DNA of 64,000 nt. Source: a virus. Of the stretch, positions 1 through 19,170 are shown one piece after another (within the stretch, counting starts at the first letter, position 1; each line of letters begins with the position of its first letter). The stretch is taken from positions 10,203 through 74,202 of IMG/VR virus record IMGVR_UViG_3300047300_000501; one strand, written 5' to 3'. A program made the translations under genes and the position numbers. The notes under the pieces were generated by a model, which made no database searches, had not been told where the DNA came from, and saw only the letters and a list, made by a program, of their open reading frames with translations.

Positions 1-600
1 ACACCGTATTCTTTCTCAACTACAACTTATGGAGTTAAGTGTATTTCTGGAAATACATTTATTAGACTTGCTCCAGGCAAAGGTATCGAACAAACAGATA
101 TTCTTACAGGTAAAAAATATCTTATGAATGATAATAATGAAATTATTGCAAAACAGGCAAAAGATATTCAGATTGGTGATGAAGTCATGACTGTTCAATA
201 TGCTGAAGTTGATCAGTCTTCCCCAGACTATGCAGTATTTGAGTGGAACTCTGACTCTCTTACATTTGTTTCAAATTCAACAACAACTATTACTGATATT
301 GAAGAATCCGCTAAGTTCCAAACAGTTTACATTAATGGCGACCAGTCAGCACAGTTTACTTTAGAACATCCAATTCTTACAAATAAAATCATTAATGGTG
401 TTCCTTCTTGGAAGTTTGCAATGGTAGCAGAACTTGAAGTAGGAGATATAATTGTTAAATATAACAATGAAACTGGACTATATAACAATGTAGAAATAAC
501 ATCATTAGACATAATGTCAAACTTAGACCCAGTTTATACCTTCAGTGCTGAGCCAGGTGATATAATTGTTGCAGGCGATATTATAACTCACAATAAGTAA
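1..600 (+). CDS. C-terminal part of Hint (intein-like/BIL) domain precursor, paralog of 10858..12216; truncated by left window edge
   Basis: Frame 1 is open from base 1: TPYSFSTTTYGVK-C(40..42)ISGNTFIRL...AKQAKDIQIGD...FTLEHP...VYTFSAEPGDIIVAGDIITHNK*. Motifs closely match 10858..12216. The 124 start in the ORF track is internal. Confidence 0.9.
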   Translation, partial: TPYSFSTTTYGVKCISGNTFIRLAPGKGIEQTDILTGKKYLMNDNNEIIAKQAKDIQIGDEVMTVQYAEVDQSSPDYAVFEWNSDSLTFVSNSTTTITDIEESAKFQTVYINGDQSAQFTLEHPILTNKIINGVPSWKFAMVAELEVGDIIVKYNNETGLYNNVEITSLDIMSNLDPVYTFSAEPGDIIVAGDIITHNK

Positions 601-612
601 GGGGTAATACTT

Positions 613-822
613 ATGTCAGAAAAGAAAAGGTCTGTAAAACCTTGGGACTTGCTTAACCCAAGCAAAGACCACGCAACTGATGAAGAAGCACAAAAAAGAT
701 ATGATATCTGTGATTGGTGTCCAGAATTTATTTCTTTAACTAAACAATGTAAAAAATGCGGATGTTTTATGAATTTAAAAGTTAAGTTGCAAGAAGCCTC
801 ATGTCCTTTAGGAAAATGGTAA
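613..822 (+). CDS. small Cys-rich metal-binding protein (DUF6171-like)
   Basis: RYDICDWC...QCKKCGCFM..K..L..ASCPLGKW pattern; purine-rich SD (aagggg) upstream. Confidence 0.7.
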   Translation: MSEKKRSVKPWDLLNPSKDHATDEEAQKRYDICDWCPEFISLTKQCKKCGCFMNLKVKLQEASCPLGKW

Positions 823-908
823 TGATAAAGATATTTAAAAGTATAATGTTTAGGTACAAAGAAAAAAGAAAGTATAAAAATATTAAAAGATCTAATTGGA
901 TTTACTAA
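822..908 (+). CDS. 28-aa basic microprotein (not in ORF track)
   Basis: MIKIFKSIMFRYKEKRKYKNIKRSNWIY*; TAATG stop/start overlap with both neighbouring genes. Confidence 0.6.
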   Translation: MIKIFKSIMFRYKEKRKYKNIKRSNWIY

Positions 909-1837
909 TGCTATTTGATATTTTTAAAACTGGCATTATTCCACATAATAGACCAGAAACAAAAGACAAGACAAGCGTACTTGTTACGCATGCAGAAATA
1001 GATAGGCCAGAGTACAGTTATGACTGGAATTCAGATGGCATTAGGTCTGTTGAATTTAGCACAAAGCCAAGTATTGTTGCTTTAGGATGCTCGATTACTT
1101 TGGGTCAGGGTCTTCCAGTAGAACTCAGGTGGACAGAACTTTTAGCAAAAAAACTAAACAAAACAGTAGGAAATATATCTTATAGTGGTGGATCTGCAGC
1201 ACAAGTTATTTCTAGTTTTTTTGGAATGATCGACAAATATAATTATAAGCCAGAATATGTTATTGCTAACCTTCCGCCATTTGAAAGATTTTATTTTATT
1301 GACGGTAAAGGTGAAAAAATGAAAGACTATTGGTTAGGTAATAAGCCTAGAAAAACAAAAGATCAGGCTCCTTGGGATTATGGTGCAACAATCCCATACG
1401 AGTGGGTTTATTATAATAATCTAAACCATATCAAGATGTTAGAAGTTTTTTGCAAAGCAAATGATATTAAGTTAATTTGGTCAACCTGGAGCAATGCGTT
1501 GTCTCAAGAACACGAGTCATTTTTGTTAGATAATTTTGAAGGATATGTTGTAGATACTGTTAAAAAGCAGTTTCCACCACACTTTGAGTTTTATGTTAAT
1601 CCAAAAGAAGTTGATGGGCTTTTACCATTTTATAAAATGAATAATTGGGATAATATAAAATGTCATATTAAAGAAAGCCTAGACACCCCTGACATTTTTG
1701 ATTATGCTTATGATTATCATAAAATAGGCAGGGCACCAGATAGAGATGTGACCAGAACACCACATCCAGGTGTGCATAAACATATACATTGGGCAGAGTT
1801 TTACTTTGATATAATTAAATCTATGGAGACAGAATAA
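908..1837 (+). CDS. SGNH/GDSL-like hydrolase or acyltransferase
   Basis: Block I-like ALGCSITLGQG, NISYSGGS, C-terminal PHPGVHKHIHWAE; start 908 is coupled to the upstream stop. Confidence 0.6.
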   Translation: MLFDIFKTGIIPHNRPETKDKTSVLVTHAEIDRPEYSYDWNSDGIRSVEFSTKPSIVALGCSITLGQGLPVELRWTELLAKKLNKTVGNISYSGGSAAQVISSFFGMIDKYNYKPEYVIANLPPFERFYFIDGKGEKMKDYWLGNKPRKTKDQAPWDYGATIPYEWVYYNNLNHIKMLEVFCKANDIKLIWSTWSNALSQEHESFLLDNFEGYVVDTVKKQFPPHFEFYVNPKEVDGLLPFYKMNNWDNIKCHIKESLDTPDIFDYAYDYHKIGRAPDRDVTRTPHPGVHKHIHWAEFYFDIIKSMETE

Positions 1838-2430
1838 TGGATAGGATTGAGTTGGCACCTGGAATTATGTCTTATAAAAAAGTCATAAATCAAGAAACCC
1901 CATTAGACAAACAGATAGAGTTTGCAATGAGTAAAATTGGTTTAAACTGGGAGCCAGCATATGTAAGGACAAATGGTGAAAATATGATAGATAAGAGTGC
2001 TAGGGATACAGGTAGTTTCTTTATCAACTCCTACGACCATCTTATTGACAATCACTCAACACCAATAGACTCCTTTTTTACATTATTATCTAATTTATTT
2101 TTAAATAAGTTTAAACCAATACATGAGGATTATAAGAATTATTATCAAATATCTACAAAAACACAAGAGGCTTATAGTATTCTAAAATATGGAATTGGTC
2201 AAAATTTTATTAATCATATAGACGATCTAGATAACACGAGAAAAATTTCTATGGTTTATTATATAAATGATGAATACACTGGGGGAGAAATTGTTTTTCC
2301 TAGGTTTGGTTTAAACTATAAGCCACAAGCAGATGAAATGATTATGTTTCCTTCTACATACGTCTACAATCACTCAGTTCTTCCTGTGGTTGAAGGAAAC
2401 AGGTATGCTGTAGTTAGTTGGTTAAGATGA
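1837..2430 (+). CDS. 2OG-Fe(II) oxygenase, prolyl 4-hydroxylase-like
   Basis: HID, RKISMVYYINDEYTGGEIVF, FPS.Y.YNHSVLPV..GNRYAVVSW (HxD...H...R). Confidence 0.9.
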   Translation: MDRIELAPGIMSYKKVINQETPLDKQIEFAMSKIGLNWEPAYVRTNGENMIDKSARDTGSFFINSYDHLIDNHSTPIDSFFTLLSNLFLNKFKPIHEDYKNYYQISTKTQEAYSILKYGIGQNFINHIDDLDNTRKISMVYYINDEYTGGEIVFPRFGLNYKPQADEMIMFPSTYVYNHSVLPVVEGNRYAVVSWLR

Positions 2431-8964: not shown

Positions 8965-9004
8965 GAGATAAGTAAATGGGCAGCCCCCATAAGGAGAATA
9001 TAAA

Positions 9005-10834
9005 ATGGCAACTAGAATGCAACAACGCAGAGGTACTGCACAGCAATGGACTGACGCAGACCCAATTTTGGCAGCAGGAGAAATTGGATTTGAAACAGAT
9101 ACCAACCAGTTTAAGATTGGTGATGGCGTAAATGCATGGTCAGATCTCTCCTATTTTAAGAACTTAGAAGATCTTGGCGGATCTTTAGATGACTATGTTC
9201 CAGTTAGCACAAAGGGTCAAGCAAACGGTGTAGCCGAACTTGATTCAACAGGAAACGTTCCAATGTCTCAACTTGGAAACATTATTGATGGTGCACCAGC
9301 AGCACTTGACACACTCAACGAAATCTCAACACTTCTTGGTGATGGGTCAAGCCTTGGAGCATCAGTAGTTTCATCTTTAAACGCACTTGATACAGCGCTT
9401 GCAAACCACGCAGACAATACAAGCACTGCTCATGGAATGGTGATTGCAGACCTCGCAACACATACTTATGTAGCCGATGCAATAACAACACATGCGTCAG
9501 ATACTACAGGTGTACACGGTATTGCAGATATGTCTGCACTAGCAACATCAGAGTATGTTGGTGATACAGTTGGAGCACACAACCTAGATACAACACAGGT
9601 GCACGGAATTGAAGATACAGCAGAACTTGCTACAAAAACATATGCAAATAATGCAGTGTCAACACACCAAGCAGATACAACAAATGTTCACGGTATTGCA
9701 GATACATCTGCTCTTGCACTATCTGTAGATGTAACATCTGAAATTGCAGCACACTCTGCAGATACAACAGATGTTCATGGAATTACAGATACAGCAAACC
9801 TTGTCTATACATCTGACTCACGCCTTTCAGATGAAAGAACCCCTTCTGCGGGTTCTGTAACAGCAGCAAAGATTGCAGCAGATGCAGTAGAAACAGCAAA
9901 GATTGCTGACGGTGCAGTAACAAATGCAAAACTTGCAGATGATGCAGTAGATACTTTAGAAATCAAAGATTTAGCAGTTACAAATGCTAAGTTAGCAGGA
10001 TCAATTGCACAGTCTAAGATTACTAATCTAGAGACAGACATTGCTTCAAAGCAAGACAAGGTAACTGGAGTTTCAGATACTGAGATTGGGTACCTTGATG
10101 GAGTTACATCAGCAATCCAGACACAGATCAATGGAAAGGCTTCTCTTTCTGGAGCAACCTTTACAGGTGATGTTACAGTTGAAACCAACCTTACAGTTGA
10201 TGGAAACCTTACAGTAACAGGAACAACTACAACAGTTTCTGCACAAGATCTTGTTGTGTCTGACCCACTGATCTATATCGGTGAAGGAAATACAGCAAAC
10301 CTTGTTGACCTAGGTCTTGTATCATCTTTCAACGATGGAACCTACCAGCATGCAGGTATTGCTCGTGATGCTTCTGCTGGAAAGTGGAAGATCTTTAAGG
10401 GTGTAACTGATGAACCAACAACTACAATTAACTTTACACAGGGATCACTTGATGACCTTGCAGTTGGTGCTCTTGAGGCAACAACAGTTACTCCATCTTC
10501 TGGAATAGTTTTCTCAGATGGCACACAAACAAAGGTTGGAGTTCCATCTATAACAACTTTTGCAACAGCAATTTCTTCTAGCGCAACACTTGCAACAGGA
10601 GAGCAGGATAAGTTTGTTCCACTAACTGGAGCAGTTACAATCACTCTTCCTGCAACAGGATACTCTACTGGGCAGTCAATTGACTTCTATCAGGCTTCAG
10701 GTACTGGTGCACAGTTTGCTTCAACCAACAGCGTTGTAGGCACACCAGGACTAAAGTTCAGAACTACAAACTCAGTAGTAACAGCAATGAAGACTCCAAC
10801 TGGATGGTTAGTCTTCGGAGATTTGTCAGCATAA
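9005..10834 (+). CDS. tail fibre protein with Mtd_N/hyaluronidase-type N-terminal domain
   Basis: MQQRRGTAQQWT...ILAAGEIGFETDT..FKIGDG; GAPAALDTLNEI; His repeats; AVT.AK[IL]A repeats; C-terminal WLVFGDL. Confidence 0.8.
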   Translation: MATRMQQRRGTAQQWTDADPILAAGEIGFETDTNQFKIGDGVNAWSDLSYFKNLEDLGGSLDDYVPVSTKGQANGVAELDSTGNVPMSQLGNIIDGAPAALDTLNEISTLLGDGSSLGASVVSSLNALDTALANHADNTSTAHGMVIADLATHTYVADAITTHASDTTGVHGIADMSALATSEYVGDTVGAHNLDTTQVHGIEDTAELATKTYANNAVSTHQADTTNVHGIADTSALALSVDVTSEIAAHSADTTDVHGITDTANLVYTSDSRLSDERTPSAGSVTAAKIAADAVETAKIADGAVTNAKLADDAVDTLEIKDLAVTNAKLAGSIAQSKITNLETDIASKQDKVTGVSDTEIGYLDGVTSAIQTQINGKASLSGATFTGDVTVETNLTVDGNLTVTGTTTTVSAQDLVVSDPLIYIGEGNTANLVDLGLVSSFNDGTYQHAGIARDASAGKWKIFKGVTDEPTTTINFTQGSLDDLAVGALEATTVTPSSGIVFSDGTQTKVGVPSITTFATAISSSATLATGEQDKFVPLTGAVTITLPATGYSTGQSIDFYQASGTGAQFASTNSVVGTPGLKFRTTNSVVTAMKTPTGWLVFGDLSA

Positions 10835-10857
10835 TTTAAAAACTAAAGGGGAATAAT

Positions 10858-12216
10858 ATGTCAAAACAAGCAGGTAGAATGAGCCAGGGAGCAAATGACT
10901 TCTTGGCACCGTACGCTCCAACAATTGGAACAGCAACCAACGTTCCAGCAGGAAGAGCATACAACAATGGACGGGTAGATGTAACATTTACTCCTGACCC
11001 AATCAATGCAGCAACATCATTTACTGTGACATCTTCTCCTGGAGGTTATACTGCAACTGGTGCTTCTTCTCCAATTTCAGTTACAGGTTTACAATCATCA
11101 GTGGCTTATACATTTACTGTTACAGCAACTAATGACGCAGGAACCTCAGCACCGTCTGCAGCATCAAATAGCGTTACAGCGACAACAGTCCCTGCAACAC
11201 CAACTGCACCAAGTGCTTCTTCTCCGTCAGCAGGTGTAGACTCAGTTTCATGGTCTGCACCAGCAGATGGTGGATCAGCGATTACAAATTACCACTGGGA
11301 ATCAAATGACTCAAAGTCAGGAGATACAGCATCTACATCAGTAAGCGTTGGACAGGAGCAGGGTACAGCACAGGCTTATCGTGTTTATGCAACAAATGCT
11401 AATGGTAACTCAGAATACTCTTCATACTCTGGAACAGTAACTACAACATTTTCATTTGTTCCATTTGGCGTGTTTGGTTTCTCACCATTTGGTTTCTCAC
11501 CATTTGGTTTTTCACCATTCTCATTCTCTCCATTTGGGTTCTCTCCGTTTGGGTTTTCTCCGTTCTCATTCTCACCATTTGGTTTCTCACCGTTCTCATT
11601 CTCACCATTTGGATTTTCTCCTTATGGATTCTCTACAACAACATACGGTGTAAAGTGTATTGATGCTAATACATTTATTAGAGTAAAGACTGGACTTGGT
11701 GTCGAGTCTACTGATCCAGAAACTGGCAAGGTAACTCTTAAAGATGCATCAGGACAAGTAGTTGCTAAGCAAGCAAAAGATATTCAGGTTGGAGATACAG
11801 TTCTTTCAGCAGACTATGCCGAAATTGACCCATCATCTCCAGATTACGAAGTCTTTAACTGGTCTTCTAACTCACTATCTTTTATTAATCACTCAGAAAC
11901 CACAATTACTGACATTGAAGAAACAAATAAGATTCAAACTATTTACTTCAATGGTGATCAATCAGCACAGTTTACATTAGAGCACCCAGTTCTAATTAAG
12001 AGAAATACTGCTGGAGCAATTAGTTATGGTTTTGCTATGGTTGCAGAAGTTCAGGTTGGAGATGCTATTCTAAAGTATAGCCCAACATCAAACTCATATA
12101 TTGAGACAGATATTACATCTATCGACATATCTTCTGGACAAAAGGTAGTCTATACTTTTAGCGCAGAACCAGCAGATCTTATTATTGCTGGTGACATCGT
12201 TACTCACAATAAGTAG
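10858..12216 (+). CDS. FN3-domain protein with (FSPF[G/S])x10 array and C-terminal Hint domain
   Basis: Two FN3-like units (VTGLQSSVAYTFTVTATN.AG.S; VSWSAPADGGSAITNY...YRVYATNANGNS), the repeat array, then K|C(11656)IDANTFI...TLEHP...DIVTHNK*. Confidence 0.9.
   Translation: MSKQAGRMSQGANDFLAPYAPTIGTATNVPAGRAYNNGRVDVTFTPDPINAATSFTVTSSPGGYTATGASSPISVTGLQSSVAYTFTVTATNDAGTSAPSAASNSVTATTVPATPTAPSASSPSAGVDSVSWSAPADGGSAITNYHWESNDSKSGDTASTSVSVGQEQGTAQAYRVYATNANGNSEYSSYSGTVTTTFSFVPFGVFGFSPFGFSPFGFSPFSFSPFGFSPFGFSPFSFSPFGFSPFSFSPFGFSPYGFSTTTYGVKCIDANTFIRVKTGLGVESTDPETGKVTLKDASGQVVAKQAKDIQVGDTVLSADYAEIDPSSPDYEVFNWSSNSLSFINHSETTITDIEETNKIQTIYFNGDQSAQFTLEHPVLIKRNTAGAISYGFAMVAEVQVGDAILKYSPTSNSYIETDITSIDISSGQKVVYTFSAEPADLIIAGDIVTHNK
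11479..11628 (+). repeat. 10 x 15-bp coding tandem repeat, FSP[F/Y][G/S]
   Basis: FSPFG FSPFG FSPFS FSPFG FSPFG FSPFS FSPFG FSPFS FSPFG FSPYG, with synonymous codon variation; degenerate FVPFG at 11455. Confidence 0.95.
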
Positions 12217-12221
12217 CGTGT

Positions 12222-12893
12222 ATGCGTGGGGACAGACATCCTAAGCCATCTGAATTTTGGCTAAGCACTTATGACATGTCTTTTTCAGACATTGTTAATA
12301 AAAGTAACTGCAATCGGTTATTTGTAGAGTATCAGCATGTATTAAAAAACGATGCTGTAAAAAACTCTATACTAAAGCCAGTAAATGACTACGCTTATAA
12401 TTTATATCCTGCGCCAGAGTTTCTTAAGTATGAGGATGGATATGTATATTTAAGGCAGAGAACGCATGCAGAGATATGGGTCAAACTAGATTATACTCTA
12501 GGTGTTTATTTTTTAGACAGACCACATATTAGGCAGTTTTATTGTTCAGATAAAATACTTAAAGCAGATAATACATTTTTATCTACATACAGATTTTATA
12601 ACCCATGGTTTTTTGACCTTAACAGAGAGTATGAAATAGTTGCTGTACATGATGAATTTACCCCCTTTGTAATAGAAGAGTTAGTTGTGCCAATTTTCAA
12701 CACTAATGTCACTATCCTTGAGCCAAATTTTACTCATTTTTTGTTTAAAAAGAGCGGGGACCATATGCTGGATCCAACTCATGGTAAAATTAGTATAGGA
12801 ACTCCTATGTATGACATGAAGATAAAAGTAAATGACAAGGAACTTAAGTCATTAAAAGATTTTTATTCAACATATAAGTTTCACAGATTCTAA
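12222..12893 (+). CDS. hypothetical protein, divergent relative of the two following genes
   Basis: RFYNPWFF and GKISIGTPMYDMKI echo INPMWSV and GIIEKGTPIAQVIP of 12908. Confidence 0.5.
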   Translation: MRGDRHPKPSEFWLSTYDMSFSDIVNKSNCNRLFVEYQHVLKNDAVKNSILKPVNDYAYNLYPAPEFLKYEDGYVYLRQRTHAEIWVKLDYTLGVYFLDRPHIRQFYCSDKILKADNTFLSTYRFYNPWFFDLNREYEIVAVHDEFTPFVIEELVVPIFNTNVTILEPNFTHFLFKKSGDHMLDPTHGKISIGTPMYDMKIKVNDKELKSLKDFYSTYKFHRF

Positions 12894-12907
12894 AGAAAAG
12901 GAAGAGT

Positions 12908-13627
12908 ATGCCAAACATAGAGTTTCACCCTTGGAGCGACGACGCTGAAGGTTTGATTGATAAGCCTACGCCAACACATAGAAATGTTCCAGAGTGGTAC
13001 AGAAAGCAACCAGCATACGTAAACAAAGAAGATTTTCTTAAAAAGGGTATTTCTGGTTCAACAATAAAGAAGTGTATGCCAGTCTTTGATGCTATGACAG
13101 CGGGGTATACTTTGTATTGTCCACTAGATATTTATGTAGATGCAACAGATCCAAATAAATTAGAGTATAACATCCCTATAGCCGTTGCTGGCTTTAAAAA
13201 AGAATTGTTTACCACACACTCACCAGAGCAAACTACTCACTATCCAATGCCGTCATATGTTCATAAGGATGTTCTTAGAATTAATCCAATGTGGTCAGTT
13301 AAAACATCTCCTGGCTATAGTTCATTGTTTATTAAGCCAATGCATCAAGAGCATCAGCCTTTTGAATTAGTACCAGGAATTATTGATACAGATACCTATG
13401 TTAGTGAAGGGTTCTTATCTTTTAAGATTGAGAGTAGTTTTAAAGGCATAATTGAAAAAGGAACACCTATTGCTCAAGTCATTCCATTCAAAAGAGAGAA
13501 TTGGCAAAGTCAACATATAGAATATAAAGATTCTAAAGAGGGTCAGAAAAAGCAAAGAATGCTCGTGAGAAGTAAGTTTTTTAATTATTATAAGAAAAAC
13601 TTTTGGCACAAAAAGGAATGGCATTGA
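12908..13627 (+). CDS. DUF6065-related / dUTPase-like-fold protein
   Basis: PEWYR, TIKKCMPVFDAMTAGY, W.VKTSPGYSSLF..P, PGIIDTD, KGTPIAQVIPFKRE.W. Confidence 0.55.
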   Translation: MPNIEFHPWSDDAEGLIDKPTPTHRNVPEWYRKQPAYVNKEDFLKKGISGSTIKKCMPVFDAMTAGYTLYCPLDIYVDATDPNKLEYNIPIAVAGFKKELFTTHSPEQTTHYPMPSYVHKDVLRINPMWSVKTSPGYSSLFIKPMHQEHQPFELVPGIIDTDTYVSEGFLSFKIESSFKGIIEKGTPIAQVIPFKRENWQSQHIEYKDSKEGQKKQRMLVRSKFFNYYKKNFWHKKEWH

Positions 13628-14355
13628 GTAAAAAGATAAAGTTTCATCCAACATCTTTAGAGATGTATGATAATTTTGACATACTTCATCCTGAACCAGC
13701 AATCAAACACATACCTGAATGGTATAAGGATTTAGCCCAACATTATGATACAAATAATGTAGAGTTTTTAAACCCAGTGAATGATCGTGGAACAGATGGT
13801 GCCAATGTTTCTACTAAAATGTGCTATCCATTTAGAGATGCTATGACTGCTGGGTACGTTTATCGATTAACCCAAGACATAGAGGTTACATTGAGTCCAG
13901 ATGGCAAACCAGAACTATCTTGGGAGTATGATTCCTTAATGATGCTTGACAAGAGGTATATCCTAGATATGGTTCCACCAGAGGGCTGCCACCCTGTTCA
14001 TTTTGGTCTAAGAATGCATTGGTATTATGAAACGCCACCAGGATACTCTGTTTTAATTACCCACCCAATGAATAGGTATGATCTGCCTTTTACAATTCCT
14101 TCAGGAATCATTGAGTCAGACCTGATGGGTATTCCAGTATTTCTATCATTTTTTCTAAAGAAGAATTTTATTGGTACAATCCCAAAGGGAACCCCACTAT
14201 TTCAAATAATACCTTTTAAAAGAGAAGACTGGGAGATGGAAGTAAGCCTAGACCCAGAAGAGATATTACAAAAAGAATACGACCTTGAAAATAGAAGAAC
14301 TAGATTATTTGCATACTATAAAAAGTTTGCATGGAGAAAGAAGAGTTACCTATAG
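13624..14355 (+). CDS. DUF6065-related protein, tandem paralog of 12908
   Basis: PEWYK, KMCYPFRDAMTAGY, ETPPGYSVLITHP, KGTPLFQIIPFKREDW; likely TTG start overlapping the upstream TGA. Confidence 0.55.
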   Translation: MSKKIKFHPTSLEMYDNFDILHPEPAIKHIPEWYKDLAQHYDTNNVEFLNPVNDRGTDGANVSTKMCYPFRDAMTAGYVYRLTQDIEVTLSPDGKPELSWEYDSLMMLDKRYILDMVPPEGCHPVHFGLRMHWYYETPPGYSVLITHPMNRYDLPFTIPSGIIESDLMGIPVFLSFFLKKNFIGTIPKGTPLFQIIPFKREDWEMEVSLDPEEILQKEYDLENRRTRLFAYYKKFAWRKKSYL

Positions 14356-14387
14356 TGTATAATAATAATATAGAAAAAGGAGCAAGC

Positions 14388-15011
14388 ATGAGAGAGCACA
14401 AATTCTTTGAAAGAATGCTAAATGCAGACACAGACCGTTTAGCGCATTACCTTGGTGAGCAATATCAAAAGATTGAAACACTAACTTTGCCAGGTATTCA
14501 GAAGTTAGGTCCAAATGAGGCATGGACAGAATCAGGAAGTTTATCTACAGTAAAGTGGAGAGAGTATAACGTCTTTCAATTTTTTCATCCAGATATTCAT
14601 AAACTATACAAGACAATTGGTGAAGTTGTTAGAGAGGCTTGTGAGTACTACCAGATTGATTTTGATTCACAAGAGTATATGGTTCAGGGATGGTTTAACA
14701 TTAACCATAAGAAGACTGGTAAGTTAGACTGGCACGATCATGGTGGGCCTTTTGCTCCACATTTTCATGGATTTTATTGCGTAAAGGCTGAGCCATCAAT
14801 TACTTACTATAGACTTTTTGGTGATCCAAACCGAGAGGTTGCAAATCACAATATTAATAATAGAATGATTGTTTCAGAAATGGGACACCCACATGCACAG
14901 GGTGACTGGGACTGGGATGGTCCAAGAGTGACTATTGCATATGACATTGTTCCTTTAAGATCTCTTGTCAATGTCGGCGCTTCAGAGCAGCATTGGATTC
15001 CATTATGCTAA
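14388..15011 (+). CDS. putative 2OG-Fe(II) oxygenase (HxH type, TIGR02466-like)
   Basis: GWFNIN, WHDH, FHGFYCV.AEPS.TYY, GHPH, PRVTIAYDI; SD aaggag before 14388. Confidence 0.65.
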   Translation: MREHKFFERMLNADTDRLAHYLGEQYQKIETLTLPGIQKLGPNEAWTESGSLSTVKWREYNVFQFFHPDIHKLYKTIGEVVREACEYYQIDFDSQEYMVQGWFNINHKKTGKLDWHDHGGPFAPHFHGFYCVKAEPSITYYRLFGDPNREVANHNINNRMIVSEMGHPHAQGDWDWDGPRVTIAYDIVPLRSLVNVGASEQHWIPLC

Positions 15012-15655
15012 CAGAAAAGAAACCACATAAGTTCTTTGAGCGATTTTTAGATAACGATGTAGAAGAGTTGTACGAGTATCTTGCAGATAAACAACAAGAT
15101 TTGCTTGAAGGAAAGGTTGGACAAATTCCACCAGAAGAACTAGCAAAGTACGATGAACATAATGGCGCAACAACACAATTAGGAATGCACTATAATGTTT
15201 TTGACTTTGACCATGTCGGAATCCGTAACCTTAAGGCTGCACTTGCAGATGCAGTAAAAGAAGCAAATGAGTACTACGGCGAAAACTTTGAAGAGAATGA
15301 TTATATGATTCATGGTTGGTATAACATGGATCCAAAAACACAAGGTAAAAAGGGTGTCAATCCTTTACAGAATGATGTGTTTTTTCATGACCATATGGGT
15401 GGAGAGGGTAGCCCTGTATTTCATGGGTACTACTGTGTAAATGCGGAACCATCAATCACTTACTATAAAATTGATGGTGTAACATTATTTGAAAATCATA
15501 ACAAGAATAACAGGGCTATTGTTTCAGAAACTGGTCATCCGCATGGAAGAGATGATTGGTTTGAAAATAAGCCAAGAATCACAATAGCCTACGACATAAT
15601 TCCTGCAAGAATGCTTGGAAATGTTGAGGGGCAAAATTGGCACAAACTGAAGTAA
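15005..15655 (+). CDS. putative 2OG-Fe(II) oxygenase, tandem paralog of 14388
   Basis: HKFFER.L, GWYNM, FHDH, FHGYYCVNAEPSITYY, GHPHG, PRITIAYDI. Confidence 0.65.
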   Translation: MLTEKKPHKFFERFLDNDVEELYEYLADKQQDLLEGKVGQIPPEELAKYDEHNGATTQLGMHYNVFDFDHVGIRNLKAALADAVKEANEYYGENFEENDYMIHGWYNMDPKTQGKKGVNPLQNDVFFHDHMGGEGSPVFHGYYCVNAEPSITYYKIDGVTLFENHNKNNRAIVSETGHPHGRDDWFENKPRITIAYDIIPARMLGNVEGQNWHKLK

Positions 15656-16512
15656 AACACGGTAAGATTCTTGTACATATCTACTCTTATAAAGAGAGAA
15701 ATCTTTTAGATTTTGTAGAAAGTATCATCAATAAAAGTTCTGGTATTAACGCTATTGACATATACGTAACTGATCAGAACAATCTTACAAGACTAAGACA
15801 ATTTGTTCCTTATAGCAATGTTAGGTATGACGTTGTTTGGTGGGATGAGTTTTTAAGTCCTAATATTTATATTCAAAAAACAATAAGCGAAAATGCCTAT
15901 AAGCAGTATGATTATGTATTACTATTAAAGCAACATGTTGAATTCAAGAATGGTTGGGATACAGATTTAGTTGGTCTGCTACCTGAAGATGGTGTTATTT
16001 CTGGCCAGGGCAAATTTAGACTATCTATAGATAAAAACTTTTATATCAAAAAGGATAAAAGAATATCTAGAGAACTTGTTAGTACTGGATTTATAGATAG
16101 AAACTTTATCTTTGCTAAATTTAAAGATATTAGAAATATTATATTTCCATATGAATTAAAGTACTATGGTGATGAAGAGTATCTCTCTATACAGTTTTTA
16201 AATAACGGTCTTGATATTTTTGCACTCCCAACAGATTACTACACTGTAATGTCTAAGCCAATTCATGAAAGAGGATACGTTCCATTTTCTCTAAACCATA
16301 ACTACAACGAAGTGGTCTCTTTACTTAAAGAGAACAGGACATCTAGGCTTCCATACAAAGATCCATCTAAATTCTTACAATTGATTGGTCTTGACCTAAC
16401 AAACTTACATAGGTTGCCGTTTGACTTCAATGATATTGAGTACGATAGATTTTCTAGTTTGGATAAAACTGGTGGCAAGAGATATATTGAAAGATTAAAC
16501 TCAGTATCATAA
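15637..16512 (+). CDS. GT-A glycosyltransferase, GT60 (hydroxyproline GlcNAc-transferase, Gnt1)-like
   Basis: ILVHIYSYKE (cf. IFVSIASYRD), KQHVEF..GWD (cf. DSH.RF...WD), YYGDEEYLS......G.DIFALP (cf. F.GEE.......G.D...P). Confidence 0.6.
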   Translation: MAQTEVKHGKILVHIYSYKERNLLDFVESIINKSSGINAIDIYVTDQNNLTRLRQFVPYSNVRYDVVWWDEFLSPNIYIQKTISENAYKQYDYVLLLKQHVEFKNGWDTDLVGLLPEDGVISGQGKFRLSIDKNFYIKKDKRISRELVSTGFIDRNFIFAKFKDIRNIIFPYELKYYGDEEYLSIQFLNNGLDIFALPTDYYTVMSKPIHERGYVPFSLNHNYNEVVSLLKENRTSRLPYKDPSKFLQLIGLDLTNLHRLPFDFNDIEYDRFSSLDKTGGKRYIERLNSVS

Positions 16513-16566
16513 TTTTAAAAGTATAAACCATTTATAGAGGGTAGAGTTTTGCTTTTTAGAAAACTC

Positions 16567-16575
16567 TGCTATAAT
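16567..16575 (+). promoter_or_regulatory. extended -10 promoter of RNR
   Basis: TGCTATAAT. Confidence 0.55.
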
Positions 16576-16608
16576 TAAGTCTATTCCGTTTTTGAAAGGA
16601 CGAAACAC

Positions 16609-18639
16609 ATGTCAGATTTTTTTAGTTTTAGATTAACAGATGACTTCGTAGAGAAGTTTGCAACAGCACCAAACCCATTTGGATTTAAGGATGCAGCAGA
16701 AAACTCTCTTGGAGAAATCACTTTTATTCGCACATATTCTCGTGTGAAGGAGGATGGAACTAAAGAGCGCTGGCATGAAGTATGTCGTCGTGTAATCGAA
16801 GGTATGTACTCAGTACAAAAGAATCACGCTAAGGAAAATCGTTTACCTTGGAATGATTATAAGGCTCAGAAGTCTGCACAAGAAGCATTCCAGAGAATGT
16901 TTGAGTTGAAGTGGACACCTCCAGGACGAGGTATGTGGACATTTGGAACAGCCATGACAATGGAGAAGAGAAACTCAGCAGCACTTCAAAATTGTGCAAT
17001 GGTATCAACAAAAGATCTTGACAAGAATGATCCAGGAGCCCTATTTGCTTGGGTTATGGACGCACTGATGCTTGGCATTGGTGTTGGATTTGACACAGTG
17101 GGACAGGAAAAGAATTTTACAATCTATGCTCCAACAGAGCCAGCAGTGATTTATAATATCCCAGACACTCGTGAGGGTTGGGTAGAATCAGTTCGTCTTT
17201 TGCTAAACTCTTACCTACGACAGAACCAGCCTATTCAAAAGTTTAACTACGACCTTATCCGTCCCCTAGGAGCACCGATTAAGGGCTTTGGAGGGGTCGC
17301 TAGCGGTCCAGCACCACTTATTCAACTACATGCACAGATCGATAAGGTAGTTGGCGGTAGAGTCGGAGAAACACTTGATAGCCGTGCTATTACAGATATT
17401 GTTAACCTTATTGGTACCTGCGTTGTATCAGGAAATGTTAGACGTTCTGCAACACTTGCTTTGGGTGCAGCAGGGGATGAAGATTTTATTAATCTAAAGA
17501 ATGCTGAAGTCTTTCCAGACCGTAACTCGTTTGATCCAGAAAACCCAGGGTGGGCTTGGATGTCAAATAACTCAATTTCTGCAACAGTCGGAATGGACTA
17601 TGAAAAGTACACTGATCTGATTGTTAATAACGGAGAGCCAGGATTTATTTGGCTTGATGTTGCTCGTAACTATGGTCGTCTAGCAGATCCTGCAGATGGA
17701 AAAGACTATCGGGTTATGGGCTTCAATCCTTGTGCGGAGCAGCCATTGGAGTCGTATGAACTTTGTACTCTTGTAGAAGTTCACTTAAATCGACATGAAT
17801 CCAAGGAGGACTTCCTCAAGACATTGAAGTTTGCTTACCTTTATGGTAAAACTGTTACGTTGCTTCCAACACACTGGCAGCAGACAAACGGTATCATGCA
17901 AAGAAACCGTCGCATTGGAACTTCTCTAACTGGTATCGCATCATTCGCTGATCAAAAGGGTCTTCCTATTGTCCGTGAGTGGATGGATGAAGGCTATAAT
18001 ACAATTCGTAAGTATGACCGCCAGTATTCAGAATGGCTTTGTGTACGTGAATCAATTCGTGTAACAACAGTTAAGCCATCAGGCTCCGTGTCAATTCTTT
18101 CAGGTGCAACACCTGGAGTTCACTGGGGACCTGGAGGAAACTTCTTCCTTCGTGCAATTCGTTTTGGTGATACAGATCCAATGCTTCATTTGTTTAAGGC
18201 TGCAGGGTATAAGATTGAAAAAGATGTTGTGTCAGCAAATACACAGGTAGTCTACTTCCCAGTAAAGTCAGGACATCCTCGTTCTGAAAAGGATGTAACA
18301 TTGTTTGAAAAGATTGCTCTTGCAGCAACTGCTCAAAAGTACTGGTCAGACAATGGTGTTTCTGTAACTCTATCCTTTGATAAGGAAACAGAATCAAAGC
18401 ATGTTGCTCCAGCACTTCACATGTATGAGGGGCAGTTGAAAGCAGTATCATTCCTACCTATGGGAAACACTGTTTATCCTCAGCAACCATACACTCAGAT
18501 TACTGAAGAGGAATATGAGTCTTATGTCGGAGTTCTAAAGCATATTGATTTCTCTGCTATTTATGATGGCAATGAAAATCTAGAAGCAATGGGTGAAGCC
18601 TACTGTACAACAGATTATTGTGAAATTAAGGTAAAGTAA
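16609..18639 (+). CDS. nrdJ: class II adenosylcobalamin-dependent ribonucleotide reductase (monomeric RTPR type)
   Basis: RTYSR, PPGRGMW, LQNCA, GNVRRSA, NPCAEQPL..YELC, TTVKPSG, C-terminal YCTTDYC. Confidence 0.95.
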   Translation: MSDFFSFRLTDDFVEKFATAPNPFGFKDAAENSLGEITFIRTYSRVKEDGTKERWHEVCRRVIEGMYSVQKNHAKENRLPWNDYKAQKSAQEAFQRMFELKWTPPGRGMWTFGTAMTMEKRNSAALQNCAMVSTKDLDKNDPGALFAWVMDALMLGIGVGFDTVGQEKNFTIYAPTEPAVIYNIPDTREGWVESVRLLLNSYLRQNQPIQKFNYDLIRPLGAPIKGFGGVASGPAPLIQLHAQIDKVVGGRVGETLDSRAITDIVNLIGTCVVSGNVRRSATLALGAAGDEDFINLKNAEVFPDRNSFDPENPGWAWMSNNSISATVGMDYEKYTDLIVNNGEPGFIWLDVARNYGRLADPADGKDYRVMGFNPCAEQPLESYELCTLVEVHLNRHESKEDFLKTLKFAYLYGKTVTLLPTHWQQTNGIMQRNRRIGTSLTGIASFADQKGLPIVREWMDEGYNTIRKYDRQYSEWLCVRESIRVTTVKPSGSVSILSGATPGVHWGPGGNFFLRAIRFGDTDPMLHLFKAAGYKIEKDVVSANTQVVYFPVKSGHPRSEKDVTLFEKIALAATAQKYWSDNGVSVTLSFDKETESKHVAPALHMYEGQLKAVSFLPMGNTVYPQQPYTQITEEEYESYVGVLKHIDFSAIYDGNENLEAMGEAYCTTDYCEIKVK

Positions 18640-19170
18640 ATGGAGGACTACGTGTCACAGATACATCACTTTAAGGCATTCATGAAGCCAGAAGATGCTG
18701 AAAAAATACATCAGCATGCTGTAAAGTTTAGTGATAGTTTTAATATGCATGGAAACAATGAAAAAGAATTTAAGGTCTACACCTATCATGAGATTGAAAA
18801 AGATGATAGACAAATTTTAGATCTTATGCAGTATTATGCCCTTAAGGTTTATAATCATGTAAAAGAAACATATGGTGGTCCATTCTTAGAATTCAATCCA
18901 CACAAAACACACTTTGCACGTTTTGAAGAGGGACACGGAATGCATAGTCACTACGATGCTTCTAGGCCAAATGATATTGCTACTGTTTTATATTTAAATA
19001 GTAACTACGATGGAGGAGAGATTTATTTTCCAGAGTATAACATAGAAATAAAGCCAGAGCCAGGAGATCTTCTATGTTTTCCAGATGAACCACACTTTGT
19101 TCATGGGGTAAAGCCAATTCTTAAGGGTACTAGATATACAACACCACGCTGGTTTCCACGCATAGTATGA
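18640..19170 (+). CDS. 2OG-Fe(II) oxygenase, prolyl 4-hydroxylase-like
   Basis: HSHYD, TVLYLNSNYDGGEIYFP, FVHGVKPI..GTRYT..RW. Confidence 0.9.
   Translation: MEDYVSQIHHFKAFMKPEDAEKIHQHAVKFSDSFNMHGNNEKEFKVYTYHEIEKDDRQILDLMQYYALKVYNHVKETYGGPFLEFNPHKTHFARFEEGHGMHSHYDASRPNDIATVLYLNSNYDGGEIYFPEYNIEIKPEPGDLLCFPDEPHFVHGVKPILKGTRYTTPRWFPRIV

Follow-up and report, generated by a model that had tools for sequence, protein, structure and literature searches.

BIL domains have an N-terminal cysteine, a TxxH motif and a C-terminal His-Asn, contain no endonuclease domain, and are found outside conserved host proteins, on variable proteins of the surface or adhesion type. Multivalent aromatic contacts are the likely working principle of the cohesive FG nucleoporin domains, whose FG motifs are separated by hydrophilic spacers of roughly 10-20 residues. 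Tailspikes and fibres of the Peptidase_S74 type carry a C-terminal domain that is transiently needed as a chaperone and then removes itself, and in Chlorella virus PBCV-1 a virus-encoded prolyl 4-hydroxylase acts on virus-encoded proline-rich repeats. Hedgehog and Hog proteins join a binding head and a low-complexity stretch to a C-terminal autoprocessing Hint domain. For instance, the choanoflagellate Hoglet has cellulose-binding-type domains and a threonine stretch of ~200 residues upstream of its Hog domain, and the Thr-rich stretch of a nematode Hog protein arose independently (PMC2362128).

The window analysed here is the whole 64,000-nucleotide stretch of viral DNA taken from IMG/VR record IMGVR_UViG_3300047300_000501 (positions 10,203 to 74,202), and all coordinates refer to it unless stated otherwise. 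An open reading frame at 10858..12216 (+ strand), hereafter P0001, encodes a 452 aa protein made up of a conserved N-terminus, two FN3 domains, an aromatic repeat array, a short junction and a Hint domain. The layout resembles that of the Hedgehog and Hog proteins, in particular choanoflagellate Hoglet and the Xhog proteins of nematodes. However, P0001 has no signal peptide, its low-complexity part is aromatic and charge-free and not mucin-like, and no sterol- or adduct-recognition region follows the Hint domain, because the protein ends one residue after the His-Asn.

Domain layout of the array gene and its paralog

The N-terminal ~30 aa of P0001 (10858..10947, + strand) are conserved (…SQGANDFLxPxAPTIGTATNV) in an alignment of relatives (alignment A2). 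Residues K3, G6, S9, N13, D14, F15, L16, P18 and P21 are near-invariant in alignment A2, AF2 places a short helix at aa 9-16, and this stretch is a candidate docking segment. It is followed by two FN3 domains (aa ~31-197; 10948..11448, + strand), which were recovered by Pfam in two stretches (fn3, E 1.4e-8) and modelled by AF2 as beta-sandwich strands with a pLDDT of 90-98. A conserved anchor, TTFSF, closes the second of them. The array lies beyond this anchor and is separated from the Hint domain by the junction FSTTTYGVK (11629..11655, + strand), which occupies positions -9 to -1 before the Hint nucleophile, is common to a paralog and is conserved across relatives. For mechanism, the most important piece of context, and one absent from the sequence-only reading, is that a C-terminal Hint domain comes directly behind the array.

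The Hint domain (11656..12213, + strand; 186 aa) is BIL-like and was recognised from its AF2 model, Foldseek matches and motifs. The model is of high confidence (pLDDT 92.5, pTM 0.88) and gave 46 matches at E<=1e-3 when compared with the PDB by Foldseek; among those listed, all are BIL domains, inteins or Hedgehog proteins. The type-A BIL domains are the best structural matches, namely those of Clostridium thermocellum (2lwy) and of Tetrahymena BUBL (BIL2; 6y75, E 4e-7, and 6tmm), alongside mini-inteins and Hedgehog (1at0/6tyy). Hint-domain phage proteins were matched in BFVD. The motifs comprise Cys267 (11656-11658), a block-B T373-L-E-H376 (11974-11985) and H450-N451 (12205-12210), followed by K452 and the stop codon, all on the + strand. 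P0001 thus has the N-terminal Cys, TxxH and terminal His-Asn of BIL domains, and shares with them the absence of an endonuclease domain and the location on a variable, adhesion-type protein. The chemistry to be expected of a BIL-like domain would be N-terminal (thio)ester formation followed by cleavage. Sequence similarity is marginal, however: Pfam matches to Intein_splicing and Hint (E 0.008 and 0.013, respectively) fell short of the cutoff, so that membership of the BIL group is at the structural and motif level only. True inteins, which are inserted in a conserved host protein and have a C-extein starting with Cys, Ser or Thr, differ in another respect, in that the Hint domain of P0001 is strictly C-terminal and has no C-extein. 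The single lysine after the His-Asn leaves nothing to splice.

Among 75 aligned relatives the first residue of the Hint domain is a nucleophile throughout (C in 71/75, S in 4/75) and the block-B T/S is conserved in 75/75. The block-B His, which assists the acyl shift, is more variable, being present in 28/75 and replaced by E (32/75) or Q (15/75). This loss from ~60% of the family is a further departure from BIL domains, and many of the 47/75 relatives with E or Q may therefore not cleave, or may cleave differently. In the clade of P0001 the TxxH is intact and the HN is terminal. From its predicted fold and motifs, the domain is probably self-cleaving.

This Hint subfamily is small, with just 158 clusters among 1.84 billion representatives; its members are mostly phage or metagenome proteins, and the domain is always C-terminal. 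Aromatic and/or Pro-rich tandem arrays usually precede it, in 43 of the 87 full-length matches under the thresholds of the script used, and in more by eye. Ten divergent C-terminal domains were also scanned. These yielded weak Hint_2/Hom_end_hint matches and nothing else, a Peptidase_S74 domain not being found in any of the ten. The functional logic of S74 domains and of the P0001 Hint domain may be similar, whilst their folds and chemistry are unrelated.

A paralog of P0001 lies at the edge of the window, where the 3′ end of a gene coding for PASTA-(VTP)n-Cys-rich-(VTP)n-Hint is found at 1..600 (+ strand). This part, which includes the Hint domain, has 60% identity to aa 252-452 of P0001. The start of the gene lies upstream of the window, and the full gene corresponds to 622..2106 of locus L002. 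Its PASTA domain was identified by Pfam (E 7.8e-9). The paralog junction reads …TPYSFSTTTYGVK|C; both the junction and the Hint domain are shared with P0001. Array, junction and Hint domain recur together on unrelated heads, including FN3, PASTA and Cys-rich domains and proteins of ~920-980 aa. Paralogs within one genome usually have the same array type. It could be imagined that array, junction and Hint domain form a portable ligation cassette, with a thioester at Lys266|Cys267 being attacked by a nucleophile of a partner fibre or of the host envelope and not simply hydrolysed. Interchangeable heads (FN3, PASTA, Cys-rich) would in this way be attached covalently by a sticky aromatic leash, which might itself be hydroxylated or glycosylated. 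This would amount to the conjugation chemistry of Hedgehog and BUBL proteins, here building or arming a phage appendage; we regard it as quite unlikely.

Composition, variation and maintenance of the array

The sequence-only reading had described ten 15-bp units varying at synonymous positions around an invariant FSP. Ten in-frame units are indeed present at 11479..11628 (+ strand), in frame 1 of the open reading frame, with the form FSP[F/Y][G/S] and the order FSPFG, FSPFG, FSPFS, FSPFG, FSPFG, FSPFS, FSPFG, FSPFS, FSPFG, FSPYG. FSP is invariant in the translation, and both the series at position 5 (G,G,S,G,G,S,G,S,G,G) and the codon alternatives (TTC/TTT, TCA/TCT, CCA/CCG/CCT and GGT/GGG/GGA) are exactly those first reported; at position 4 there are nine F and a single Y. 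Ahead of the ten units, two degenerate lead units (FSFVP, FGVFG; 11449..11478, + strand) were recognised from the translation and the alignment of relatives, with F198, F200 and P202 invariant in alignment A2. Tandem Repeats Finder detected the array independently (period 15, 9.3-10.8 copies) and found a higher-order period of 45 bp (85% match, score 183). The composition of aa 198-263 is F24 S15 P11 G9 T3 V2 Y2, that is, 39% aromatic with zero charged residues, in line with the ~40% aromatic, uncharged segment originally described. In the AF2 model of the full-length monomer (75-sequence alignment), aa 204-263 have a pLDDT of 34-46 and zero secondary structure, with flanks >90; as this is a monomer model, the low values are compatible with an ordered oligomeric structure.

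Several other interpretations of the repeat were tried and rejected. A pentapeptide-repeat beta-helix (A(D/N)LXX) was discarded since there is no Pfam Pentapeptide match, relatives break the register and AF2 shows no beta-helix. A collagen-like Gly-X-Y repeat was also discarded, Gly or Ser occurring every 5 residues in the window and only (AFG)n relatives fitting G-X-Y. An RNA element or a minus-strand gene was rejected too: an Rfam search of 9000-17000 gave zero matches, and ORFs on the minus strand or in another frame are artefacts of the repeat, the five other frames of the array giving stop-ridden or repeat-derived peptides.

At least 2,441 metagenomic homologs of P0001 were found (90% clustering), together with 527 relatives in IMG/VR, and the layout of FN3 domains, array and Hint domain is common in uncultured phages. 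A megablast search with 9000-14500 and a tblastn search with P0001 gave no match against 50,697 phage records, although low-complexity masking may hide part of the similarity. The stretch is carried in one contig in its source run, a freshwater metagenome. In the other runs the assembled contigs break at the array, and they give no basis for strain-level copy number or habitat.

In 184/185 unique relatives this position is occupied by an aromatic array, with a median of 40% aromatic and 0.6% charged residues and with 38% Phe, and the spacing from one aromatic residue to the next is 2 or 3 in 98% of cases. The units themselves are diverse and include FSPFG, FTPFG, FSPFxVFG, FTPY[AS], FFAPPG and Pro-free (AFG)n. 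Periods of 3, 5, 6, 8 and 11 residues occur, mixed within single arrays, and some relatives have pure (AFG)n of about 20-27 units without Ser or Pro. Array length also varies, as had been anticipated, from 49-78 aa among relatives of >=65% identity to 11-112 aa family-wide. The original interpretation depended on homologs retaining a periodicity or a residue class in this segment, and the residue class is strongly conserved. Its regular Ser-Pro scaffold holds in the clade of P0001, but not family-wide, where T, A or V replace S, periods of 3, 6, 8 and 11 occur and (AFG)n arrays exist. What is conserved is the recurrence of an aromatic residue at intervals of 2-3 positions, with spacers that are small and uncharged and with charge almost absent.

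Divergence between the units is nearly all synonymous. Third-codon positions vary among units at 5/5 positions, against 3/10 for first and second positions, and pairwise codon differences at unit positions 1-4 comprise 90 synonymous and 9 non-synonymous changes. Between the 45-bp blocks 11479-11523 and 11524-11568 there are 7 differences, each at a synonymous third position. If substitutions were random this pattern would have P ~5e-5, because just 24% of single-base changes in those codons are synonymous. Together with the presence of the array in 184/185 unique relatives, this means that the array is kept by selection at the protein level and is not the product of fresh slippage, as the sequence-only reading had proposed. 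We put at an even chance the further proposition that selection acts on composition and aromatic spacing and not on an exact motif or a fixed fold.

These observations bear on whether the array could be a passive spacer, that is, a linker which only sets the distance from the FN3 head to the Hint domain, with no specific binding role and with a composition set by slippage-prone DNA and a need to stay unfolded. Copy number and unit type do drift freely, and other members of the Hint subfamily have PT-, PV- or AP-rich linkers at the place of the array. The (VTP)n tract that the paralog carries at the same position is an ordinary Pro/Thr linker, and it fits a plain spacer as well as a sticky tail. 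However, an extreme composition has been kept in nearly all relatives, with near-all divergence being synonymous; ordinary linkers are hydrophilic, and a stretch of 40% Phe is costly to keep soluble. Moreover, the array is kept where the Hint domain has been lost. Some 21/184 relatives (~11%) end <=25 aa past the array, with several different conserved endings, and a tree of the FN3 heads from 72 loci indicates at least 11 gains or losses of the C-terminal domain with the array retained. The array is therefore more than a link to the Hint domain, and a purely passive role is very doubtful.

A second alternative is an ordered fibrous shaft, in which a regular beta or PPII-type fibre would carry stacked Phe ladders in a (probably trimeric) oligomer. 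It would be similar to repeat shafts in other viral fibres and would be invisible in an AF2 model of the monomer. Phage fibres often have repeats that are ordered only as an oligomer; the gene lies in a tail-fibre cluster, the higher-order period corresponds to 15 aa, and the (AFG)n variants are formally Gly-X-Y, with a weak Pfam Collagen match (E 0.025). Yet the mixing of unit sizes within arrays and their variable length are hard to square with one defined fold. A Pro every 5 residues without polar or charged positions is atypical for known shafts, AF2 gives the array no structure even with 75 sequences aligned, and the corresponding part of the paralog is a plain (VTP)n linker. Such a shaft is unlikely.

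The array also resembles FG nucleoporins. Motifs such as SPFG, GVFG, GAFG and TPFG in the array family recall the GLFG and FSFG/xxFG repeats of Nup98/Nup100, and charge depletion, predicted disorder (the pLDDT of 34-46 above) and evolution by composition are common to both, as is the likely reliance on multivalent aromatic contacts. The array differs in that its aromatic residues are back to back, every 2-3 positions, without hydrophilic spacers. It belongs to a phage, where transport-receptor partners are absent, and homology is not implied; the Pfam family Nucleoporin_FG had no match in P0001 at E<=0.1.

Genes around the array gene

P0001 is encoded directly after a tail-fibre-like gene (9005..10834, + strand; 609 aa) with an Mtd_N N-terminus (Pfam E 1.7e-14) and matches to many PHROG tail-fibre families. 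A tail-fibre gene is found upstream of the array gene in 79/80 related loci. This position bears on another of the roles first suggested, a RiPP-like precursor whose small repeated core peptides would be released by proteolysis. The ten near-identical units and the oxygenase-like genes nearby might be taken to favour it. However, the units are contiguous, without recognition or cleavage sequences between them, no protease, cyclase or transporter gene was detected in the cassette, and the flanks are a Hint domain and a supposed leader of two FN3 domains, which are common in phage structural proteins. With the family in a tail-fibre module in 79/80 loci, core peptides are highly improbable.

Downstream of P0001 is a variable cassette (12222..16512, + strand) consisting of u223, two DUF6065/phrog_7084 paralogs, the paralogs x226/x220 and a 291-aa weakly Gnt1-like protein. 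The paralog at the edge of the window is followed by a P4H-type 2OG-Fe(II) oxygenase (1837-2430, + strand; PF13640, E 4.8e-15) and by a GT61+cupin fusion (2418-4049, + strand; PF04577, E 5.5e-12, and Cupin_2). In four other loci (L004, L025, L057, L076) the gene immediately after the paralog is a P4H homolog, and P4H-like matches are found downstream of FFAPPG-array genes in L035, L036 and L073. Wherever a locus extends far enough downstream, the array gene is followed next by x226/x220, DUF6065 or a P4H-like gene.

The array may be a multivalent modification platform, as was also suggested at the outset, with [S/T/A/V]-Pro and perhaps Phe being hydroxylated and/or glycosylated by phage enzymes encoded nearby, much as viral or plant prolyl 4-hydroxylases modify Pro-rich repeats, and with the modified array forming a functional adhesive or protective surface. 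This is possible, if somewhat unlikely, and is compatible with the array acting as a tail. The (VTP)n of the paralog beside a P4H-type oxygenase and a glycosyltransferase fits the pattern of PBCV-1, and the recurrence of P4H genes in other loci and the constancy of the next gene are consistent with it. The residue preceding Pro in aromatic arrays is always S, T, A or V. Moreover, a PiuC-like dioxygenase is encoded by u176, x226/x220 are similar to PF13759 oxygenase clusters (score 0.96, from language-model features only), and the 291-aa protein has a sub-threshold match to Gnt1/GlcNAc-transferase (E 1e-3; 19 bits, the cutoff being 21).

Other evidence points the opposite way. Profile searches confirmed no enzyme among the genes immediately downstream of the array gene: u223, both DUF6065 proteins, x226/x220 and the 291-aa protein had no above-threshold Pfam, no NCBIfam and no PDB-sequence match. 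The two DUF6065 proteins and the 291-aa protein gave sub-threshold Pfam matches only, and the sole Pfam matches of x226/x220 members were spurious and sub-threshold. Profiles built for DUF6065, x226/x220 and the 291-aa protein did not match PDB sequences either, and hhalign found no relation between profiles of the downstream cassette and the phage's own P4H/PiuC-like family. The relatives of DUF6065 among cultured viruses are unannotated proteins of haloarchaeal viruses. The pure (AFG)n arrays at the same position lack any Pro, Ser or Thr that could be modified, and the aromatic content of the array is far higher than that of known hydroxylated repeats. After correction for phylogeny, array chemistry and cassette type showed no significant link, with 4 supported independent contrasts only. 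As for the conserved order of the genes, plain synteny within one phage lineage could account for it.

A possible maturation route and its meaning

Of the roles proposed from the sequence at first reading, a hydrophobic or self-associating adhesive segment fits best. P0001, whose gene comes immediately after that of a tail fibre, would be a phage protein of modular build in which a binding-type head of two FN3 domains is joined to an aromatic array and a C-terminal BIL-like Hint domain. From its fold and motifs, the Hint domain would carry out an N-to-S acyl shift at Lys266|Cys267 and then excise itself. The mature product would be FN3-FN3-(FSPFG)10-FSTTTYGVK, with the array as a free C-terminal tail. 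Relatives without a Hint domain that end right after the array suggest that the tail form works as a natural end state. Such a tail would act by many weak aromatic and hydrophobic contacts, adhering to a hydrophobic or glycan surface (the host envelope or the fibre itself) or associating with itself, by analogy with cohesive FG domains or with Trp/Pro-rich interfacial peptides. Until assembly the Hint domain may serve as a removable cap, keeping an aggregation-prone array soluble and unreactive. Overall, that the array is a flexible, charge-free, aromatic segment of the FG type, becoming an exposed cohesive tail once the Hint domain removes itself, is a proposition we consider evenly balanced.

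In the literature searched, no paper was found on FG-type repeats or on Hint-capped appendage proteins in phages, which is not proof of absence; the search on FG repeats returned nucleoporin papers only. If the proposed model is true, the array would be a prokaryotic-virus counterpart of cohesive FG domains, built of ultra-dense, charge-free aromatic repeats that evolve by composition, and would offer a tractable system for the roles of dense FG-type sequences outside the nuclear pore. As a naturally occurring solubility cap that removes itself, the Hint domain would be of use in protein engineering for sequences with an extreme tendency to aggregate. With oxygenase and glycosyltransferase genes nearby, and with the PASTA-(VTP)n-Hint paralog, it is possible that surface proteins of the phage are Pro-hydroxylated or glycosylated. 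The array would also add a new type of element to those that phages use for adhesion or tethering, and a very large, undescribed family of uncultured, largely aquatic phages would mature its appendage proteins by protein-splicing chemistry.

A charge-free aromatic repeat kept at the protein level

The repeat lies in an ORF of 452 aa (10858..12216, + strand), whose product is termed P0001. Translation in the ORF frame gave two lead units, FSFVP and FGVFG (11449-11478, + strand), then ten 15-bp units of the form FSP[F/Y][G/S] (11479-11628, + strand) and a junction, FSTTTYGVK (11629-11655, + strand). Position 5 of the ten units runs G,G,S,G,G,S,G,S,G,G, Tandem Repeats Finder returned periods of 15, 30 and 45 bp, and aromatic residues make up 39% of positions 198-263, where charged ones are absent. 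The sequence-only reading had described the units, the order at position 5 and the composition, and translation and repeat finding reproduced that description in full. Among the ten units all third-codon positions vary (5/5), against 3/10 first and second positions, and pairwise codon comparison at unit positions 1-4 gave 90 synonymous and 9 non-synonymous differences. Moreover, the 45-bp blocks at 11479-11523 and 11524-11568 differ at seven sites, every one a synonymous third position (7/7). Because just 24% of single-base changes in array codons are synonymous, this outcome has a probability of ~5e-5 under neutrality. The units are old enough for their DNA to have diverged, while the protein sequence has been kept constant; these counts bear out the earlier claim of selection on the protein. 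Minus-strand and off-frame ORFs over the array were rejected as genes, being by-products of the repeat, and Rfam gave no match over 9000-17000.

The whole array gene was found in one run only, from a freshwater metagenome that may be the sample of origin. The family numbers no fewer than 2,441 clusters (E<=1e-3) and occurs on 527 confirmed IMG/VR stretches; no member was found in the cultured-phage records searched. An aromatic array directly follows VTTTFSF, the conserved end of the second FN3 domain, in 184 of 185 unique relatives. Family-wide, arrays are 11-112 aa long (median 51) and 35-55% aromatic (overall F 38%, G 17%, P 14%, S 11.5%, charged 0.6%), and the step from one aromatic residue to the next is 2 or 3 residues in 98% of cases. 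Array length had been expected to vary, and does so even among relatives at least 65% identical (49-78 aa); the close relative P0002 (94% identical) also has ten units, in a different G/S order. The unit itself varies between FSPFG, FTPFG, FAPFG, FSPFxVFG (x = G, S, N, R, Q, A, T), FGVFGFSPTPP, FTPY[AS]/FVPYS and FFAPPG, and some relatives carry pure (AFG)n, n ~20-27, with neither Ser nor Pro. The Ser-Pro scaffold proposed earlier is not general but a local variant; the broader rule is that aromatic residues are closely spaced, with small uncharged residues between them and an absence of charge. An ordered oligomeric shaft is unlikely, given that units of 3, 5, 6, 8 and 11 residues are mixed and array length spans a 10-fold range.

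Two observations concern individual arrays. The pure (AFG)n arrays (L061, L062, L070, L080 and L081; ~20-27 units) are formally Gly-X-Y, give a weak Pfam Collagen match and are followed by a Hint-like domain with an initial Ser. One related contig (L033, 2329-3084 and 3011 onward) has an array gene whose frame shifts within the repeat: the repeat is read there in its +2 frame (…FSPFGFSIWILSIWVL…), and a different frame encodes the Hint portion. The repeat may have been missequenced or misassembled, or slippage may have produced a genuine truncation.

The Hint domain and forms that lack it

The N-terminal half of P0001 contains two FN3 domains (Pfam, E 1.4e-8). Its last 186 aa begin with Cys267 and end in His450-Asn451-Lys452-stop, and by sequence match Intein_splicing and Hint at sub-threshold level (Pfam, E about 0.01). 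An AlphaFold2 model of this domain (75-sequence alignment; pLDDT 92.5, pTM 0.88) has as its top solved-structure match BIL2 of the Tetrahymena BUBL locus (6y75, E 4e-7), with a Clostridium thermocellum BIL (2lwy), many mini-inteins and the Hedgehog autoprocessing domain (1at0, 6tyy) among the other best matches. The nucleophile is Cys in 71 and Ser in 4 of 75 relatives; block-B Thr/Ser is present in all 75 and block-B His in 28, being kept in P0001's clade (T373-L-E-H376), while the terminal His and Asn occur in 59/75 and 65/75. On modelled structure and motifs, it belongs with the type-A BIL Hint domains. Intein identity was ruled out, the C-extein being absent, as was Hog identity, there being no adduct-recognition region. 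The domain is unable to splice because a single Lys follows HN; if it behaves as BIL and Hedgehog domains do, a thioester would form at Lys266-Cys267 and the domain would cut itself off. A model of full-length P0001 places the two FN3 domains and the Hint domain above pLDDT 90, and array residues 204-263 are predicted to be disordered (pLDDT 34-46, secondary structure absent).

Array and Hint domain behave as a cassette. The same contig encodes a 494-aa paralog (L002 622..2106), of which the last 199 aa occupy window 1-600 and the rest lies upstream of the window. It has a PASTA domain (E 7.8e-9), three (VTP)n tracts surrounding Cys-rich segments, and a Hint domain 60% identical to that of P0001; its junction, …TPYSFSTTTYGVK followed by C, is the same as the FSTTTYGVK-C junction of P0001. 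Upstream paralogs in related genomes have other heads (PASTA-containing ~300-aa, ~920-980-aa and Cys-rich proteins), and within one genome the paralog and the FN3 gene usually have array type and junction in common: FTPFG…VK followed by SIGADTL in L009, L013, L027 and L034, FSPFxVFG in L011, L014, L020, L026 and L029, and the FTPY type in L069. A Hint-only query against 1.84 billion representative proteins returned just 158 clusters, with the domain C-terminal in all. A script detected an upstream array in 43 of the 87 Hint matches of sufficient length to classify (aromatic 27, Pro-rich 16), and many of the remaining 44 have repeats by eye (FFAPPG, YFPPYFP, YSFTPV, PTPTPVYT, APVAAPT and others). 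BFVD proteins of uncultured Caudovirales that carry the P0001-type Hint are named 'Fibronectin type III', 'PASTA_pknB' and 'Hint domain containing'. It is barely conceivable that the units are RiPP-like core peptides, since inter-unit sites and a maturase are both absent.

Twenty-one of 184 relatives terminate no more than 25 residues past the array, and their ends fall into several different conserved types (…FAPNWYGCAGWC, …FSPPFR, …FSPFYPGRND and others). On a tree of the FN3 head (72 loci), presence of the C-terminal domain changes at least 11 times with the array retained. Therefore, the array is more than a connector to the Hint domain. That it is a passive spacer is quite improbable, as its extreme composition is conserved and it is kept where the Hint domain is lost. 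Hint self-cleavage would yield FN3-FN3-array, a form that the Hint-less relatives show to be viable as an end product.

Appendage genes and candidate modification enzymes

The source is a viral contig from IMG/VR (74 kb, estimated completeness 68%) encoding a portal, head protease, DNA polymerase, ribonucleotide reductase (RNR) and a 2,310-aa tape-measure protein (32421-39353), the last pointing to a non-contractile tail of unusual length for a ~110 kb phage. The gene directly upstream of the array gene encodes a tail-fibre-like protein of 609 aa whose N-terminus is of the Mtd_N type. On the downstream side come u223, a pair of DUF6065/phrog_7084 paralogs, the x226/x220 paralogs, a 291-aa protein (GT291) and then RNR. 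Across 80 related IMG/VR loci the kept order is deco674-u151-fibre-[array gene]-[x226/x220 and/or DUF6065, +/- GT291]-RNR, with the fibre gene upstream in 79 and x226/x220 following in 60. The C-terminal ~75 aa of two fibre-like proteins (window 10600-10834 and L002 400-615) are weakly alike (32% identity, E 0.003) and both end …W-L-x-x-G-D-L-x-A; each gene precedes a repeat-Hint gene, and this segment may be a shared docking domain.

The array could also serve as a modification platform, a possible though less than probable role that is compatible with that of a freed tail. A solid P4H-type 2OG-Fe(II) oxygenase (1837-2430; PF13640, E 5e-15) and an adjoining GT61 glycosyltransferase-cupin fusion in a single ORF (2418-4049) lie just downstream of the (VTP)n-Hint paralog, and are candidates for a hydroxylate-then-glycosylate pair on Pro/Thr repeats. 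Four other loci also have a P4H homolog after the paralog, and P4H-like matches lie downstream of FFAPPG-array genes. A small PiuC-like Fe(II) dioxygenase (u176; 18640-19170) directly follows RNR, and the 291-aa protein has a sub-threshold Gnt1-type match. The tandem x226/x220 paralogs (14331-15011, 14993-15655), with invariant W-H-D-H-G, G-H-P-H and R-x-T motifs, resemble PF13759 2OG-oxygenase clusters in language-model features only, HMM and profile searches being negative. However, profile searches confirmed none of the genes directly downstream of the P0001 gene as an enzyme, (AFG)n arrays have no Pro, Ser or Thr, and array-cassette coupling was not significant, with just four phylogenetically independent contrasts, too few for the comparison. 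The PiuC-like gene is kept in most related loci and missing from several DUF6065-only lineages. No fold or function could be assigned to the tandem DUF6065/phrog_7084 paralogs (12908-13627 and 13603-14355, also 12222-12893; C56, W30, R124, R196 and others invariant), whose relatives in cultured viruses are only unannotated haloarchaeal myovirus proteins (HF1, HF2, HRTV and others).

A putative cohesive tail

We give roughly even odds to a model in which the Hint domain is a self-removed cap and the array a flexible, cohesive aromatic tail of a protein encoded beside the tail-fibre gene. The head would be a binding-type module, FN3 in P0001 and PASTA in the paralog, and cleavage between K266 and C267 would leave the array as a free C-terminal tail. 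This tail, putatively part of the virion, would make multivalent aromatic or hydrophobic contacts with the host envelope or the fibre, or associate with itself. Uncharged Phe/Pro-rich peptides are expected in membrane interfaces, from interfacial hydrophobicity scales and from Trp/Pro-rich peptides. The recurrence of PASTA heads among the paralogs in related phages points tentatively to peptidoglycan binding and to a host that is Gram-positive, possibly actinobacterial.

In motif type, in its depletion of charge and in predicted disorder, the array is similar to the cohesive domains of FG nucleoporins. However, the spaced FG motifs that define those domains are missing and there is no Pfam match; membership is rejected, and at most the array would work like such a domain. 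Choanoflagellate Hoglet and some nematode Hog proteins are built in a parallel way, with a binding head, then low-complexity sequence and a Hint domain at the C-terminus; in them the Hog domain is preceded by a long stretch rich in Thr, probably of independent origin (PMC2362128). A literature search on FG-type repeats or Hint-capped appendage proteins in phages found no paper.

The array is real, selected and widespread. P0001 probably belongs with the BIL/Hog-type autoprocessed modular proteins, a known kind, and the role of its array is putative. What is new here is an aromatic repeat of unprecedented density on phage appendage-cluster proteins with predicted BIL/Hog-type autoprocessing.
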